Part shown: positions 1,170-37,546 of the stretch, one piece after another
How positions within the stretch are numbered: the first letter of the stretch is position 1
Layout: each line of letters opens with the position of its first letter
NCBI GenBank assembly: GCA_965153355.1
Contig: OZ231126.1
Coordinates: 40,734,001 to 40,798,000, forward strand
DNA length: 64,000 bases
Direction: 5' to 3'
Source of the DNA: Flaccisagitta enflata
Lineage: Eukaryota
The notes under the pieces: model-generated
Told to the model about the DNA's origin: nothing
What the model saw: only the letters and a program-made list of their open reading frames with translations
The model's database searches: none
Program-made: the position numbers and the translations under genes

Positions 1170-6302
<5,133 letters not shown>

Positions 6303-6700
6303 TTAGTTACAAATATGGGATTTTTTATGATCACTTATGCATAATCCCCAACGCATTCATGATTTTGGTCCGTCAGTCTATAACGCTCATTTACTATCGT
6401 AAACGCTTATTTGCCTGCGCCACATCCCTTAACGTGTCCTATTTGATGGTTGGGTAATAATGTAATTGGTCTAATTGTAATCCCTGACATCTCTTTTGTG
6501 ACTCAAAACGCGTACTGATATTCGCTATCCAGGCGCCTCAATCCTTATTTCGTTATTCGCGGATTTGTTATCACTTCTTTTGTAGTTTTTTTCTCTCAAC
6601 GATCAGTGTTGCGCCTCGTCTTCTCAAATTCATTGTCATTTTTCATTTTTCTTTTGATTTTTCATCTGAAAATAAATAAAAAGGGTAAATTGATACAATA

Positions 6701-9700
6701 TCACAGATTCTTTATTTCCATATTTAAATCGTGCAATGACAAACTTTCTATATGTACAAGAAACTCGTCAAATCTCCCCCCAGACTTTATATAATAGCTC
6801 TTGGTCTGGGCATTAAAGAGACTTAGTTTATTCACTGAGTAAATAATGCCCTTGTTTGCTAGGAATTCCAATTTACAGTTGATAGACACATTCTGAACAG
6901 TGTACCACAGACAGCATGGTCTTTGATAAAAGACGCGAGATTGCACAAGATCTTTCAAATAGTCAGATTCGTGATTGGGACACACTCCCAAATCCTTGAA
7001 ATGACGCTTTTTAAAAAGCCAAAAGTTTTTTGGCAGCTGAGTTGATGTCCAATCTCATTCTTAAATTAAGTATCAAGTATTACAATTGGCCAGGGCTTAC
7101 TTGTGGTCACTATACGCTTAAATGAGTTCAAAGCCATAGATAGAGCCATCTGTATTGGTCCGTAAAAATTCTGTCAAAAACCACGTTTTGAATTGAAGCT
7201 AAAAGTTTAGCATTTTAGCGATGCCAGTGGCAACTAGACTCATATGAATCGCTCTCAGATTGTGCGTTGGATACAAAATGAAAAAGCCTCTTTTGATCAT
7301 TGATCTTAGTTCCATGTGAGAGCAAATGCAATGTTTGCAGTTCTTGTACTTCGACTTCATCCATGATATAGCTTCTTTTGAACCGGGAAGAGTTTAATCC
7401 ATAACAACCGATTGCGTTGTTTATGCAACTTTTGCTAAAACTGACAAATCCCTTTTGATCCTTGTGCTTTTGCAGAGCAGAGAAAAATGGTTCTCTTAAC
7501 TTTGAGAACGGGTTCTTTCCACAAACTTGATATTCAAAGATGGAATCAATTGAAATTACTTCAAAATCGGGCATTGATTCATTTGTCAATAGTTCTCTAA
7601 ATAAGATGGTAGAGACTATTTTCTGTGACACTTCTTAGATCCGTTCAGTCTCTCCCTCTGAGTTTTTGTAGAAAAAAAGGGGTATGTATTCCCAAATTGG
7701 TCCGAGACTTTGGGCCACATTTGGCCGAACATTTTACAAACCCGTTCAAATCTCCCTCTGAAATAGCTTTGACAATCTTCTGCTCGGTCAACTTTCCATA
7801 CTTTGTCAAGGGAAACCGCCCCATTGTCAATTGTTCTACAAATGTAGCAAACTGTATCCCGCTACATTCTTCCCTCAAGGGAATGCCAAAATGGGAGAAA
7901 AAATGTTCTGTATTTGTCAGCCAGAAATACAGAAGGTCGCATTCGTATATGCTCACGACTTTTTTGCCTGTTTTCTCGTACATTAACTGAACTTTTCGCT
8001 CAGTTTCATTGTGTACGTCGTCATAACTCATGTTTTGTTTCATTGGATGAGCGGAGCTTCTCTGTTCATTTGTTTTTAGACGCCAAAGGCGTGGCCTTAA
8101 ACTTTCTCCTGGGTGTTTTTCATCCCTAGGTGCATCGTTGGTCCTGCAGACATCACAGGCCATTTTGTGCTCATCACTGACATTACTAGAATGACATTCT
8201 GTATTATGCGAGTGCATAAAACATCCACAGTATTCAATAAAGACATCAGCGCTCCCGACGTCCATCACCACACAAAAAGAAACCAAACTTTTTTACATTC
8301 TTTTTAAGCACAGAGCGCGTTTTATAGACTCCTGAGGAGCCGCAGCTCACTCCTCAATAGCGTTAATCACCATGTTACTGAACGTTTTCCCTCTCCTACT
8401 TCGCTTGGCTACAAAGTATGTGCCTTCTTTTGCATATTCTCTCGGCAAGCCCGTTAGTAAAAACCTTTGAGAATCTGACATGTATATTGATGAGTAGTAC
8501 TTTTCCATGTCAATGGCGATGGCACTTTTCAAAGTGCCATCAATGTCAATCGCTGTTTTCTTCGCATTTAACAGTCCGCATGATATATAATTGGTATCCA
8601 CTTCATTGTAAAATGCTTCAGATGGGGAATAGAACATGTTCTTCTGAATTTCTGTTAGACAATTGCCAGAAAGAACTCGACCTACCCTGGTAGCGCTCTC
8701 GTAACCAACTATGTTCAGATTTAAATCATTTTTAAAATTTTGAACACAATTTTCAAAGAGTTGAAACTGATTGATTTCGGCTACCTTATCAGAGAAGCAG
8801 GGAGCGAAGTTATTTAACATTATAAATTTCACTGGGTATTTCTTAACATTTACTGTCTTCAACATATTTTTCTCAAATCTTGTGCTTATGTCCTCTGATT
8901 TGTGGACACAGCTTAACTGTGAAAGCAGCTCGCACATGAAAGAACTTGGCAATCTACAATCTGTAGTGCCAACCGAGACATAATAGTCGTACGTTCCCAG
9001 ATAGTTTAAACGTCCATTTTGATTGCTTTCAATTTGGTCAACTTTATTGTGTCAATATTGTTCTTGTCTCAACTGGCGTACTATTTAACATTGATTCAAG
9101 CTCTCTTAGGAACATCACATTACTTCCCATACGCTCTCCAAGAACATGAACACTGCACAGTGCTCCAAATTTTATGACATAATTTACACCCTCTTTAAGG
9201 GTAGCAAATTCCTTTTTTGTTGTGAGGCTGTCATTGTTTTTCAACTTTGTTTTCATCACAACTGAGACGGGTCCCGACCTTGTCCCATTTACCAAAATGT
9301 GACCATACTTTAAATCTCGAGTAATTGGGGCATTTTTCAATTCCTCTATATCCTCCACACATTTCTCCAAAGAATATTTAAAATGTACCAACTTTTCTCC
9401 ACCAAATCTTTTTTTTTCACAATCTTTCTTAACGCGATGTTCCATCAAATTAGTTTTGGTGGCAAAGCACCGTCCACAGTGCACACACTGGTATTTTTTC
9501 ATGTATGCATCCAAATCTGTGATAATGTTTACATGATTATTGTTTTTTTGTCAAAAAATATACTACAATCTTTGTAATTACCATTGAGACAAATTTTATT
9601 TAAAAAGTTTTTTTCATGTTTTCAGTTTTTTCTATTGAATCATACATGATTTTTTTCATTCCAACTTCTTTTTCATGTATCAAGACAATGTTTGACTCCA

Positions 9701-10482
9701 AATAACGCTCTAACAATGGCAAATATTCTTCTGGCAGTCCTTTATCTGCCTTCCATTCAGTATATGGGTGACCCTCATTTTTTTTAGCCACCAACCATTT
9801 CTTAAACCCATTTTCCAATTTCATGGCAATTCTTTTTTGAGGAGTGCCCATCTTTTTTTTGTCTCACATTTCTTTTTTCAATCTTACGTCCTTTCACTGT
9901 GTACACACAACTTAGAATCAGCCATACACATTTATTTTGTTGGCAGTTTTCCTCACTTTTACATTTGTTTTTGCTAATTCCCCAATCAATGTACCAATGA
10001 TCATTGCCAAATATTCTTCCACTCTCCATTGTGATGTGAAACACAAGAGTCATAGGACAGACAAGTCCATCATCGTAGTTTTTCTCCAATTCTATCACAG
10101 ATATCTCTAAAGAGGCTAAGAGATTGTATTGTCTTAGTATGACATCGAAAAAGTGTGTAAAGGTTTGTTGATTATGGATCAAAAAACTAACCGGCAAAGC
10201 CTGGTTATTGCTCCTCGAGGCCCAGATAAAATTCTGAGTCTGATTTACCAAAGAGATTATGGCTATTGATGGGCTGAAATTCACTCTCCACGCTTTTCTT
10301 TTTTTTATGAAATGCTCATGAAATATGCCCTTTAAGTACCGAAACAAAAATGGGCAAAAATCAAGGGTTGCAGGCCAGAAGTTAAGTATCGTTGGATCTG
10401 GCCTTTGAGATGATAGTCTAAATGATACTTCTGAGCATATCATATTAGATGAGAGAGTTACTTGATTCCTCACATTTCCCAA
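6701..10482 (-). pseudogene. Protein-primed family-B DNA polymerase (Polinton/Maverick type), multiply frameshifted
   Basis: Collinear fragments 10482-9802, 9851-9600, 9514-9044 (zinc finger YQCVHCGRCFATKTNLMEH), 8952-8347 (motif A-like IAIDMEKYYSSIYM), 8286-7645 (endonuclease-like insert IEYCGCFMHSH...VVSIYECD), 7631-7215 (motif B-like KSCINNAIGCYG), motif C-like LRTNTDGSIY (NTDG at 7156-7145), 6991-6701 (CKLEFLANKGIIYSVNK). Confidence 0.85.
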
Positions 10483-11035
10483 TGGTCCCTTGCTAAATCG
10501 AATAACTCTGGGGAGAAATCATTTATAGCTACAGAGCTATTCGAGTCACTGTGGATTACAGAGTTGATTTGGTCGTTTGTTAATGCACTCATTTTTAGCG
10601 TTTTGGCGCACTGTGCATTTTTTTTTCAGAAACAAACGTCAAACGGCGAAAACGATCTTAGAGAAAACGAATGGCGATGCCAAAGTCTCCTTTCCAACTG
10701 GAGTCAATAAAGTTCATCATGGTGAGAATTTTTACTTTTTTTCATTCATGTCATATATGATAATAAAACAGTGAATTCACTTCAATTAAAAACTTCAAAT
10801 TCCAATGTGGTAGGGTTATATTTTTAATCCATTTTACATTTAGAAAAAGCACATTTATATACAGTTATACTAATCTGTTATATAAACAATTGGTCCAGAA
10901 TGGTCATTCCATTTGAATAGTTTTCCCAATGCCATCTTTCCATCTCATAGATATCCCTCAACCTGCCGCATTTCTCTTCGATGCTCGCACAATAAGCCTT
11001 TATTGTCCTTATTCCTGAAAAATGACCAACGATTA

Positions 11036-11284
11036 TCATTTTCTGCTTAGTTTCCGTTGGGCCTCTACCACAAGAGCATCTAGTCCGCACCGGCTTTTTC
11101 CGCGCTTCCCACGGCCAATAACGACTTCTTTCCGCTTCCGCCTTCGCGAACGACGAGAACGTTTGGACTTCTTAGATCGACTGCGACTTCGACGTTTATG
11201 CCCACGGCGACGCTTTTTTCTCATTCCTCTTAAATGGTTAGCACGTAAAAATCTCCCGCGCTTATCTCTCCTAGCCTTCGCCAT
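11036..11284 (-). CDS. Small Arg/Lys-rich protamine-like protein, putative virion core/DNA-condensing protein
   Basis: MAKARRDKRGRFLRANHLRGMRKKRRRGHKRRSRSRSKKSKRSRRSRRRKRKEVVIGRG..., mixed codons rather than a microsatellite; lies between capsid and polymerase on the same strand. Confidence 0.65.
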   Translation of the reverse strand: MAKARRDKRGRFLRANHLRGMRKKRRRGHKRRSRSRSKKSKRSRRSRRRKRKEVVIGRGKRGKSRCGLDALVVEAQRKLSRK

Positions 11285-11338
11285 ATGTTTGCTTTTGTGA
11301 TGCTTTTCCAACTTAGGGTAAACAAAATCGTAAATAAT

Positions 11339-13997
11339 TTAAAAACATATATAAGATGTCATACAGCAACAAGTGTGTACTAGATAGTAAAGACAATACA
11401 ATTCCAAATTTCGAGGCGCGCATGTCACTACTGCTCGCTCAAATGAAGCAATCTGGATAACCACGTTGCTACTCAAGGCCGAAGAAAAGCGCAAGCGAAA
11501 ATCGAGAGCCTGTATGTATTGAGAGGGGTAGGGCGAGGTGGGGCAGGGCAGGAGCAATAAAACCTTTGACAACAATTAAATCAGTTGGTCCACTATTCAC
11601 TCAACTATATCATTAACATGTACCGCGGTAGTGGTGAGGTTCAATCCATCTGGATCATCCATCAACTTTGATGGCGTTTGTTTGAACGAAATGACGAATA
11701 GAAATAAATCTTTGTTGAAACTGGTCATCAATAAAGCATTATAATCAGATTAGACACAGCCGGATACACAACTACCCCAGTCGCGTATGGGTGGGCAGGG
11801 GCCATATCCAAGGTCCCTTCATCATTTGGGTAGGAGCAGTGAGGCCAAAACCTGGAAAAACTAAAAATGTAAGATGTGACGACAGATCGACATATGGACC
11901 GGCTAAACGACCAACGGACGGATTGACCAACAAAGCGGTGGTGAGTCAGCACGCGACTGGGCGTTAACAACTCATAACTTTATACCGCTTTCGAGAGATG
12001 CTCTTTGATGCATTGGGAAAATTTTGCAGCATTTGCTTGTAGAGATAATCCACCGCATATGAGTTTTCATCGGTCAAATCCATATTCGACAAAATCTCAT
12101 TTTGAGGCATGCCAACTCCATTTTTGAATACTTGCAAATCAGCCAGACCCTCATGGGTGTACCAAAACCTATATCAATTTTCCAAATTACTCATGGTTGT
12201 ACCAAAATCTATATCAATTTTCAAAATTACTCATTCTCACCAAATTTACCTATTTTTGTAGTTGCCAAGAAACTCAGCTTCCTTCTGGAACATGACAATC
12301 AATATCTCAGGCAGTTTGGCAAATTGACAGGCGTTGCTTAGAGAGTAGAGCTGTAAAGGGCAAGTCAGTGGCAGTGCAGTATATCTAAAAATCTGTCTCT
12401 CTCTCTCTCTCTCTCTCTCCGTCTGCCTTCGTCTATCTCCGTCTGCCTCCGTCTGTCTCTGTCTATCTATATGCCTATCTCTTTATCTTTCTCTTTCCCC
12501 AACCCAAACATGCACCAACTCTCCCACTCACACTTACACTACTCCCACTTTGGAGGGTAAAGTGCCTTATTTTGTCAATTGGAATTACACGCTCCAATTT
12601 TTCACTGTTCACGAGCTAATACCAACTGTTGCGAACGTTTGTCTCCAACTTGTAATAAGTTAGGCTCACCTTGGCGTTCTCAAGGAACATTTCATACTCG
12701 CTGGTATCAGATTCTTCTTTTATGAAGATTTTGGATGAAGGAAACATTTCCATGGATACCTCAACCACTCTTTTTTGTGGAATTAAAAAAGGGAGACTGA
12801 AGTAGCGCGAGAGAAAGGACAAGGGCACATGGAAAGAATGTCCACTAGACTTGCCACATTTCTTGAGAAGTAACGCCCTCTCGTAAAGCCCTATTTAAAT
12901 AACAAAACAGATCATAATTTGTACCATGCCTCATCACTGAATACCTTACACTTATCTCTTTGTCTTTACTTATTCATACCTTTGTTCCAATTTTTCTTTT
13001 TCAAGCTAAAGGCTTTCATTTGGGCAGCGGTACGCTTTGTGCCACTTGCTATTATAGCATCATAATCCAAAACACCACACTGACCATTGCCGGCTCCTAT
13101 TTAGAAATACCTCATATAGCAAATCTATGGCAATATCAAATCTTCCTCAATAACAATTCTTTTAATTATTGTAACCCTCAATAGCGTACCTGGAATTTGG
13201 TAAAAAAGGCAGAAACAGCGGGAACAATCACATACACAGATTTTGTCCTGCGTGCTGTCTGACGATGCTGTTACCAATAAAAAAATCATTGATTTTTAAA
13301 TTTTAACATTATTTCAAGCACTATCACACAATACCCAATACCCAATACCCAATAAACAATGCCCAATACCCAATACCCAATACCCAATACCCATTGCCCA
13401 ATACCCAGTACCCATTGCCCAAATAGCCTACTACCTATTGCCCAATACCCTTTACCCAATACCCAATACCCAATATCCAATACCCAATACCCAATACCCA
13501 ATACACAATACCAACAATTAACAATTTAATGTCTAATACCCAATACTCACATGCATTCCCCTCAGTGTCCTCTCTAAAACCAGCTCCAAACAGATGTATT
13601 TCCCTCCACTCTGGTGTGTAGTCCAGCATCAAACGCAAAAAGAGGAGATGCGCAGAATATCGCTCATTTTCAAACGCTTCCTCCCCCGCCACCAATACTT
13701 TAACCGTCTCTAAAATCAATATCGCCAAAAAGTTGACACAGGAAATCTGATCTGTCTCCGCATATTCCCCTCCATCTTTTTTCAATTTCAATGAAAATAT
13801 CAACTCCGATTCAGGCCCATAAAGTTCAGAGGGCAGAGTTGGGGGCAACTGAAAGTTCATTTTTTTGCGTTTTTCAAGCTATTTGAGGGGGCAATTTCAA
13901 CTCGGTGAGATCCAACAATTCCAGCGTAATTTGGGGGAAGCAATGATATCTTGCAGATATTTGGAACGCTTATCTCACTGTCAACCAACATTTCCAT
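11339..13997 (-). pseudogene. Spliced Polinton/Maverick-type double-jelly-roll major capsid protein, ~515 aa, one frameshift and one premature stop
   Basis: Exons 13997-13551, 13267-13190, 13096-12980, 12890-12538, 12350-12250, 12168-11986, 11720-11624, 11509-11339, all GT-AG and phase-compatible. Ordered MCP-like segments: LLPPNYAGIVGSHRVEIAPSNSL, LKKDGGEYAETDQISCVNFL, LMLDYTPEWREIHLFGAGFREDTEG, NKGLYERALL, KLPEILIVMFQKEAEFLGNYKNRF, FNKDLFLFVISF, LDFRLRFSSALSSNVVIQI. Frameshift in A-run near 13861-13866; in-frame TAG at 12618-12616. Confidence 0.88.
13330..13546. repeat. 7-bp tandem repeat (TACCCAA)n in capsid intron 1
   Basis: Degenerate array seen directly between donor 13550 and acceptor 13268. 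Confidence 0.9.
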
Positions 13998-14162
13998 GAT
14001 TCCGTTGTGTATTTTGATAAGGCCTGAAATGTTAAAAAATACAATAATGGGTATGTTAACCGATTTAATACCATTTACATTGCAACAACCATCACAGCAA
14101 ATTTTACATAAATTGCAAATGGGGTACTGTAAGTCTACACAACCATCTTTTCATGCATTTAT

Positions 14163-14732
14163 TCATTCTTTTTTGAATGAATAGAGATTGTTGTTTAATT
14201 TGTATGTGCCAGATTCCACCCGCCTACGAAGGACCGCTCCTAGACGTCGTTGCAGATATTTGGTCGGCTGAAGCGAAAAGTTCCTCAGCAAGAACTCTTG
14301 GATGAACGAACGTCCCACTCCAATCTCGTGTCCCGCCAAAATGGCCTGGTCGACAAACCCCTCAAATTGATGCGCGGTAACGACGTCCCTCTTGGATCGA
14401 TCTTCCTCCAAAGCGCTGTTACTCAATCGGGTCCCGGTCAGGCGCTCCTGAAGACGGCTACATGGCGCGCGAATGCTTTGCAACTGTGCATCCATCATAT
14501 CCAGCCTCTCCTCCACCAACGCACTGGACACCTTCGCGCATCCTCCTGCTACGCCTTCAACATCTTCGTCGTTGCTCTCAATTGGAGTTTCATTGTTGCT
14601 CTGATCATCTCTATCGTTACTCCCATCGTCTTCGTCGTAGCTCGACAAATCCTCGTCCATCAAATTCTTGGTTTTTTCATCGCCGTCTCCAACGCTAATC
14701 ATCTTTTCTCCCTGGACGTTTTCCTCCATCAT
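14163..14732 (-). CDS. 189-aa protein: acidic N-terminus, possible coiled coil, C-terminal linker-histone H1/H5 (H15)-like winged helix
   Basis: Intact ATG ORF; FEGFVDQAILAGHEIGVGRSFIQEFLLRNF...LGAVLRRRVESGTYKLNNNLYSF follows the helix spacing of the H15 globular domain (AI..., GxSR.aI..yi, aLk..V.sG, SF). Confidence 0.65.
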   Translation of the reverse strand: MMEENVQGEKMISVGDGDEKTKNLMDEDLSSYDEDDGSNDRDDQSNNETPIESNDEDVEGVAGGCAKVSSALVEERLDMMDAQLQSIRAPCSRLQERLTGTRLSNSALEEDRSKRDVVTAHQFEGFVDQAILAGHEIGVGRSFIQEFLLRNFSLQPTKYLQRRLGAVLRRRVESGTYKLNNNLYSFKKE

Positions 14733-15093
14733 AAGGTCAGTTTTTCACTTTTTTTTTTGATTTTCTAATGTGTCAATCAAATTATAAATTGTGAGGTACA
14801 TCAATCATTTTTAGGTGCGACAAACCGCCTCTATAACTGGCTCTGTCCGTCGGTCGGTAGGTTGGTCGGTCACGCAATCTTATTACAATTTTTATATAAT
14901 CCCAACATTTACTACCACATACAAAACCACGCTTTCAGTCCATTTTCCAATGAGTATAGCCTTGCTCCGCATCCCTTTAGTCCATCCCAAATTCTTCAAA
15001 ATATTGTTTCAACAATTCCCTCTTACCTTCTTTCTTCATTTTGCCGCTTTTTTTCTTTCTTTTTTTTTCCTCTCTTATCTTTCTACTGACAGC

Positions 15094-28208: not shown

Positions 28209-37546
<9,338 letters not shown>

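Follow-up and report, generated by a model that had tools for sequence, protein, structure and literature searches.

An acidic protein ending in a predicted H1/H5-type winged helix is carried by a multi-copy element in Flaccisagitta enflata DNA

This work concerns a small gene in a 64,000-nucleotide stretch of Flaccisagitta enflata DNA (contig OZ231126.1 of assembly GCA_965153355.1, positions 40,734,001 to 40,798,000 of the forward strand), called the window throughout; all positions are counted within it. The gene lies on the minus strand and belongs to a multi-copy element of ~9 kb, and its product, judged by homology and by predicted fold, is an acidic protein that ends in a winged helix of the linker-histone H1/H5 type (H15, Pfam family PF00538). 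A first-pass annotation, made from the DNA letters, had described here an intact open reading frame (ORF) with a D/E-rich N-terminus. Indeed, positions 14163-14732 are exactly filled by an uninterrupted frame of 189 codons, with an ATG ATG start and a TGA stop (Table 1), and the first 68 residues of its product hold 22 D/E against 5 K/R, a net charge of -17. Over residues 69-115 the charge is neutral; the final 74 residues, with net +4 and pI 9.86, are basic, and the protein as a whole has a net charge of -13 and pI 4.68. Although the acidic tail is variable elsewhere, its stretch KNLMDEDLSSYDEDD (residues 22-36) is invariant or nearly so in 20 close sequences, and it may be a short binding motif. 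In distant members of the family, aromatic residues are likewise embedded in acidic runs.

The frame belongs to a family. A word-indexed protein search gave 152 candidates, among which 12 proteins match at E<=0.001; these close relatives are 44-91% identical to the window protein, are 164-195 aa long, and carry neither a name nor a precomputed Pfam domain. An exhaustive profile search of 1.84 billion representatives then returned 45 clusters at E<=0.001, 24 of them reaching E<=1e-10 and four E<=1e-30, with proteins of 103-304 aa in all but three cases. With 12 close relatives and 45 clusters, the frame is more than a chance ORF, and on these matches we take it to be a member of a real, conserved gene family. 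None of the members read from 17 looked-up protein clusters is named.

The shape of the family was read from an alignment of 48 sequences, made up of the window ORF, seven close relatives out of the 12, and 40 other proteins from the profile search (the close relatives P0007 and P0010 and the 48-60-aa fragments P0042, P0052 and P0055 were omitted). The N-terminal parts vary in length and cannot be aligned, a helical middle part comes next in the sequence, and the C-terminal core is the most conserved; this core comprises the last 71-90 residues of each protein (71-82 in all but one member) and runs to the C-terminus, so that at most ~10 residues follow the C-terminal domain in 47 of the 48 members. 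The charge pattern is kept as well: the N-terminal part is net negative in 46/48 members, the winged-helix domain is net positive in all 48 (median pI 9.5), and the whole protein is net negative in 42 (median pI 5.0). True H1 histones have Lys-rich tails, and the acidic tail noted in place of such a basic one is thus a property of the family and not of a single sequence. Moreover, the architecture persists down to ~20% identity, in small single-frame ORFs found on many contigs.

Sequence comparison leads from this family to PF00538. When the members were scanned singly, 33 of the 48 matched PF00538 at E<=10, while the next family, a coiled-coil domain of unknown function (DUF), was matched by five; at E<=1e-4 PF00538 was matched by seven members (best E 1.2e-7) and no other Pfam family was matched at that level. 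Ten members were also scored individually: eight show PF00538 and two exceed its gathering score of 22.4 bits, namely P0015 (23.8 bits) and P0021 (25.2 bits), whose membership of the family is given by E-values of 3.7e-26 and 4.4e-18 in the profile search of the representatives. Searched against the PDB, a profile of the 48 sequences placed the H1.0 globular domain first (E=0.0044), and H1.0 or H5 chains fill 13 of the first 15 rows. In the hidden Markov model (HMM) alignment to H1.0, the turn that leads into helix 2 keeps its Arg and helix 3 its basic residues; on a provisional H1.0 numbering, the window protein has basic residues where H1.0 has R47, K69, K73 and R74.

The predicted structure agrees with this assignment. 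An AlphaFold2 model of the window protein, built from a 13-sequence alignment, has a disordered N-terminal part (predicted local distance difference test, pLDDT, 36-50), followed by one long helix over residues 70-113 and then by a compact block over residues 120-186 (block pLDDT 91-96). The block consists of helices at 120-133, 141-152 and 158-174 and a hairpin of strands 177-180 and 183-186, with the order helix-strand-helix-helix-hairpin that is the order of a winged helix, and only three residues separate the domain from the stop codon. Foldseek, which the first-pass annotation had named as a check, ranks globular domains of H1.0, H1.4, H5 and Hho1p first to seventh in the PDB at modest E-values that are taken up below, with template modelling (TM) scores on the target of 0.65-0.77, root-mean-square deviations (rmsd) of 1.8-2.8 and identities to the window protein of 12-19%. 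Among viral predicted structures, the clandestinovirus 'bifunctional linker histone H1/H5' comes first, superposing on 67 columns with an rmsd of 1.2 (E=5.7e-4, 24% identity), and an H1/H5-family protein of pithovirus LCPAC102 stands at rank 10 (12% identity).

Since the relatives match PF00538 and the predicted fold is that of its members, the window protein is H15-like by transitive homology. We regard the assignment as established for the family on the profile matches and, for the window protein, as given by clear homology together with the model. Even if its members were no more than accessory DNA-binding proteins, the family would form a well-defined new H15 subfamily that is mostly missed by current Pfam thresholds. 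The H15-like C-terminus proposed earlier therefore stands by way of the relatives and the structure. The further idea that an H1 domain had been captured from a host does not follow, because identities to H1 domains of only 12-24% allow no donor to be inferred: they are 12-19% for the best PDB structures and 24% for the best viral one.

The long helix between the acidic part and the winged helix has a character of its own. Read from the alignment, close relatives carry hydrophobic residues at the fourth and seventh places of four successive heptads over residues ~74-104, and the profile searches returned matches to dimeric and trimeric coiled coils, consistent with this pattern. From this we infer that the middle helix oligomerises. 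A complex prediction for two copies of P0001 residues 62-190, P0001 being the 91% identical relative, scored 0.02 and gives no answer either way.

The copy in the window is not in perfect condition. It differs from P0001 at 18 residues, of which 13 fall within residues 88-103, and the last 86 residues of the two proteins are identical. The 88-103 stretch is peculiar to the window protein, as it differs from all 19 other close sequences, and pieces of family sequence are present in the other two reading frames of this region, which makes compensating frameshifts likely. With broken genes on either side of it in the element and this aberrant stretch in its own helix, the window copy is probably decaying. 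In its winged helix it does not differ from copies that look intact.

The gene is carried by an element present in many copies. Parts of an 8.1-kb stretch of the element were found in 20 of the 24 listed runs, from 10 studies, comprising marine metagenomes and the organism-A run. In the organism-A run, which holds 1,182 million letters, single-contig word depths reach ~5,900-7,200, values that are not copy numbers, and up to nine different contigs cover one place of the element, which is why we conclude that it is multi-copy there. In the protein collection, variants at >=90% identity number 41 for the H15-like protein, 42 for a 1297-aa protein encoded further downstream and 44 for the product of the gene directly downstream. 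The longest contigs of these three gene clusters coincide in length (17148 in all three, 11726 and 11805 in two), one independent metagenome contig of 2330 nt bridges positions 12433-14732 and thereby the downstream gene and the H15-like gene, and the read-through tail of P0007 matches the intergenic sequence of the window up to the start of the next gene. For close copies, the gene is thus linked to a repeated element and is not a lone host gene that turns up apart from it. The cluster of P0060, a second lineage of the 1297-aa protein, has no longest contig equal in size to one with other element genes.

Longest contigs with element genes cluster at ~9.1-9.7 kb (9150, 9166, 9386, 9406, 9407, 9493, 9496, 9518, 9540 and 9676). 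This length may be the assembled unit of the element between flanking high-copy repeats. Two different short repeats, one just upstream of the H15-like gene and one between the genes further downstream, are ~100x deeper than the surrounding element and interrupt the contigs of every run; both resemble units of a short interspersed nuclear element (SINE)-like or satellite kind, inserted in and next to the element.

Whether the element is viral is another matter. Pattern scans of 2.9 million viral contigs with A1, with A3 for the 1297-aa protein and with A7 and A8 for distant subgroups gave no relatives, and the capsid likeness of the neighbouring gene is a weak lead, so the earlier label of a virus-associated protein was not borne out. 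Scans of JGI metagenome contigs with A1 and P0062 also gave no relatives. The hallmarks looked for were those of a Maverick/Polinton/adintovirus-type element, among them a double jelly-roll major capsid protein. Pfam scans of the 12 larger frames of positions 6701-14150, which represent a decayed copy, matched no retrovirus-type integrase, packaging ATPase or maturation protease, no candidate ORF for an integrase, packaging ATPase or protease is visible at 19-40 kb of the window, and a self-BLAST of the window showed no terminal inverted repeats flanking 6-15 kb.

All genes next to the H15-like ORF lie on the minus strand. The first-pass annotation placed the ORF directly upstream of a capsid gene; a gene does follow directly, beginning at an ATG at 13997, 166 nt past the H15-like stop, but its identity as a capsid gene is a lead and not a finding. 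It has no Pfam match. Its ESM-Atlas neighbours include clusters scoring 0.95-0.96 in which part of the entries bear the labels Capsid_N (12%), DJR-like_dom (10%) and Sputnik_MCP (15%), with a recognition value of 2059, below the mark of 2300 set by the tool. PF21738 is matched by an adomavirus hexon (PMC13696692). An AlphaFold2 model of the downstream protein had a mean pLDDT of 29.7 and was unusable. In other copies the gene encodes ~150 protein-like residues (P0056-58 and P0113-118, 94-100% alike); the window copy has a frameshift within a run of A near 13862-13885. We considered that the gene is simply truncated by the minisatellite that follows it, and dropped this explanation, since GTGAGT sits exactly at the break and an intron is equally possible. 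On this signal, the downstream gene may be multi-exon rather than truncated, with the minisatellite lying in an intron.

The 1297-aa protein is represented in the window by a pseudogene, split over eight tblastn pieces in changing frames; intact versions exist elsewhere (P0059, 93% identical, and P0060, 63%). It gave no more than a weak C2H2 match in Pfam and in PDB searches by single sequence and profile, and an ESM-Atlas lead to DNA_pol_B_2 clusters (score 0.92). The protein has a Cys/His-rich insert, and by eye some stretches resemble polymerase motifs A, B and C. Two metatranscriptome runs contain small contigs (depth ~3-5) over parts of this gene and none over 13608-14558; as these come from an RNA library that possibly holds DNA, they indicate neither expression nor silence.

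Elsewhere in the window, a tandem duplication at ~29000-32300 and 33670-36940 has a period of ~4.64-4.66 kb, as judged from identical ORFs (29474-29998 = 34138-34662 and 29005-29421 = 33669-34085). The whole window is eukaryote-like and dense in micro- and minisatellites, with long (GT)n, (CT)n and (GAA)n-type tracts, tracts coding for poly-Q/N/T at 26.8-27.5 kb and 43.5-44.7 kb, and a GC content that swings between 0.31 and 0.48.

Table 1 Features of the H15-like gene and its surroundings in the window
Feature	Position	Strand	Basis
Complete H15-like ORF, 189 aa: acidic tail, helix and H1/H5-type winged helix	14163..14732	-	
Residues 1-68, acidic, predicted disordered N-terminal part, net -17	14529..14732	-	AlphaFold2 pLDDT 36-50
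Residues 22-36, locally conserved stretch KNLMDEDLSSYDEDD in acidic N-terminal part	14625-14669	-	alignment
Residues 70-113, single long predicted helix; coiled-coil-like four-heptad a/d pattern in relatives	14394..14525	-	
Residues 88-103, aberrant Pro-containing stretch	14424..14471	-	alignment of 20 close sequences
Residues 116-186, predicted H1/H5-type winged-helix domain, pI 9.9	14175..14387	-	
TATAA, 50 nt upstream of H15-like ATG	14782..14786	-	consensus match only
AATAAA, overlaps last base of H15-like stop codon	14158..14163	-	consensus match only
Downstream gene, first coding block, with ~150 codons where intact; weak leads to capsid families	13551..13997	-	
GTGAGT, candidate splice donor where copies cease being protein-like	13545..13550	-	inference
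7-bp minisatellite, 26 copies, directly after GTGAGT; also in other copies	13329..13512	.	
Arg/Ser/Lys-rich ORF, 91 aa, between two larger genes; putative	11036..11311	-	
Pseudogene of 1297-aa protein; C2H2 finger; DNA_pol_B_2 likeness, lead only	6704..10592	-	tblastn
Short very high-copy repeat, just upstream of H15-like gene; also 31427-31490, 36069-36132	14808..14871	.	
Second, different short repeat; also 2908-2998, 28950-29043, 33614-33706	11759..11852		

What the window protein is not can be said directly: it is not a linker histone, since it has no Lys-rich tail and is an acidic protein of pI 4.7. What it may be is an oligomeric, acidic-tailed H1-type winged-helix protein of the element, which binds DNA or chromatin without compacting it; we put this forward tentatively, with a chance somewhat short of even. 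The joining of an H1-like core to a strongly acidic front is what points to binding without compaction. In such a protein the winged helix would bind DNA or the nucleosome, largely without sequence specificity, and the long helix would assemble it into an oligomer, with more avidity than a single globular domain can offer. With the acidic part standing in for the Lys-rich condensing tail, the protein would occupy DNA or H1-type sites and not compact them, and could also attract or neutralise basic partners, be they histones or basic proteins of the element. For the element, the protein might serve to hold element chromatin open or to accompany element DNA. The roles of chromatin mimic, chaperone or antagonist named in the first-pass annotation are plausible on this architecture; a reading as an acidic activator fits it about as well. 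If the protein indeed competes with H1 or escorts element DNA, it would be a small tool supplied by nature, and a case in which to study how mobile DNA manipulates silencing that depends on linker histones.

Several results weigh against the proposal of a non-compacting H1-type binder. At the sequence level, the window protein alone has no match to PF00538 even at E<=10, and so does not reach the gathering score of the family; P0001 likewise has none. The first profile, of 13 sequences, gave coiled-coil hits in the PDB and did not find H1. At the structural level, the E-values of the seven best PDB folds are modest (0.015-0.045) and not one of the 500 matches counted reaches 0.001 or lower; other winged helices (MORF/KAT6A, MCM, Rpc34 and forkhead) come close behind H1/H5 in the ranking. 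K40, R42, K52 and R94 of H1.0 are named as required for compaction (PMC11500106). On the same provisional numbering, the K40, R42 and K52 columns hold H135, E136 and E146 in the window protein, and R94 lies outside the aligned stretch. Furthermore, Drosophila dBigH1 without its basic C-terminal tail does not bind polytene chromosomes (PMC7192587); because dBigH1 needs that tail, an H15 domain that has none may bind chromatin poorly. Finally, linkage to the element was seen for copies of at least ~89% identity only.

Among the other explanations, the best placed is that the element encodes a transcription activator, with an acidic activation domain containing aromatic or hydrophobic residues, a dimerising zipper and a winged helix that recognises a sequence or CpG, as in KAT6A/B or forkhead-type proteins. 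We consider it unlikely, yet to be taken seriously. An acidic part, a zipper-like helix and a DNA-binding domain follow one another in the classic order of an activator, the near-invariance of KNLMDEDLSSYDEDD among the 20 close sequences would suit an activation domain, and the DNA-binding winged helices of MORF, KAT6A, FoxP2 and FOXO4 appear at PDB fold ranks 8, 24, 26 and 30. However, the signal at the sequence level goes to PF00538 only, and what helix 3 keeps across the family is its basic character and not particular base-reading residues. No repeated candidate binding site turned up in the element, although none was sought.

A bolder form of our own proposal is that a small mobile or virus-like DNA element of a marine animal or protist encodes an 'anti-linker histone', an oligomeric acidic-tailed H1-type winged helix, which displaces H1 on element chromatin or chaperones an Arg-rich condenser; the element would thereby determine its chromatin state itself and evade H1-dependent silencing. 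We hold this to be improbable. If true, linker-histone mimicry by viral genes, so far a matter of giant viruses, would also occur in small integrating elements.

Quite improbable in our view is that the protein serves as chaperone or assembly partner of the Arg-rich product of the frame at 11036-11311, the acidic part holding this condenser and the winged helix delivering it to DNA, in a two-part packaging system. Acidic chaperones of basic DNA-condensing proteins are well known, and an open 91-aa Arg/Lys/Ser-rich frame does lie between the two larger genes and reads the same way. Yet this frame has no recorded relatives: it has no Pfam match, and its exact sequence is absent from the protein collection by exact look-up, with no homology search made. 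The opposite strand is also open over the same low-complexity stretch, and no capsid or packaging gene was confirmed by Pfam on the neighbouring frames or by the AlphaFold2 model of the downstream protein, which could not be used.

Very improbable, lastly, is that all or part of a chromatin gene of the host is carried in repeated DNA without any role for the element, or that the whole family is cellular: H15 domains are ordinary in cells, the genomic context was read for close copies only and not for distant relatives, and the viral contig collections hold no relatives, but the many close copies sit beside the same neighbours, small single-frame ORFs of many contigs still show the architecture at ~20% identity, and TATAA and AATAAA consensus matches tightly frame the ORF.

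Returning to the proposal of an oligomeric, non-compacting H1-type binder, its parts can be set beside known systems. The closest in sequence and fold is the H1/H5 globular domain itself, with which the family shares a homologous winged helix, the same secondary-structure order and a basic character. In linker histones, however, the domain is central, whereas in the family it stands at the extreme C-terminus with no Lys-rich tail after it; the window protein moreover is acidic, has a long helix before the domain, and, on the provisional numbering, would not be basic at the three mapped compaction positions. Plant Smh/TRB proteins combine a Myb domain, an H1/H5 domain and a coiled coil; they share the H15 domain and the coiled coil with the window family, which has no Myb domain and another domain order. 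LINE-1 ORF1p, the product of the first gene of a mobile element, has a disordered N-terminal part, a coiled coil and a nucleic-acid-binding C-terminal part, and binds RNA through its RNA recognition motif (RRM). The likeness here lies in a possible mode of working, as an oligomerising element protein that coats nucleic acid, and the sequences are unrelated.

An acidic part next to an H1-type domain has been described in a cellular histone. In dBigH1, an embryonic linker histone, an acidic N-terminal (ED) domain precedes the winged helix and alters its effect on chromatin (PMC7192587), as the acidic part might do here; dBigH1 differs in that it keeps a basic C-terminal tail, is a cellular histone and has no coiled coil. 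Outside cells, H1-like genes are reported for a few giant viruses (PMC9145170, PMC11500106), and remote 'Histoid' histone-like genes for some adomaviruses and a tailtomavirus (bioRxiv 10.1101/2024.03.25.586562). In our literature search, which covered listings, abstracts and passages, no H15-type protein was reported for a transposon, an endogenous viral element, a Maverick/polinton, an adintovirus or a small integrating element. What is new here is an architecture of acidic part, coiled-coil-like helix and terminal H15 domain, in a multi-copy element widespread in marine samples.

The viral proteins are the most instructive comparison. The clandestinovirus H1-WWE protein and the pithovirus LCPAC102 protein likewise fuse H1-like domains to non-histone parts, and a chromatin role has been doubted for them (PMC9145170); they differ from the window family in that the fusion partner is WWE or a long unrelated protein and in that they belong to Nucleocytoviricota genomes. 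Nearer still is MM-H1 of Medusavirus medusae, an acidic H1-like protein of pI 5 that does not compact nucleosome arrays (Toner et al. 2024, PMC11500106) and that is thought to act on host chromatin (PMC11500106, PMC9145170). As in the window protein, an H1-like winged helix sits in an acidic protein; MM-H1 mostly lacks the canonical compaction residues, as the window protein would on the provisional numbering. MM-H1 differs in having two winged-helix domains and no coiled coil, in being a giant-virus gene and in a sequence close to the H1 of its host, whereas the window family has one domain and belongs to a small multi-copy element. Thus, since an acidic H1-like protein that leaves nucleosome arrays uncompacted has been described in MM-H1, our proposal that the window protein could bind DNA or chromatin without compaction has a precedent.

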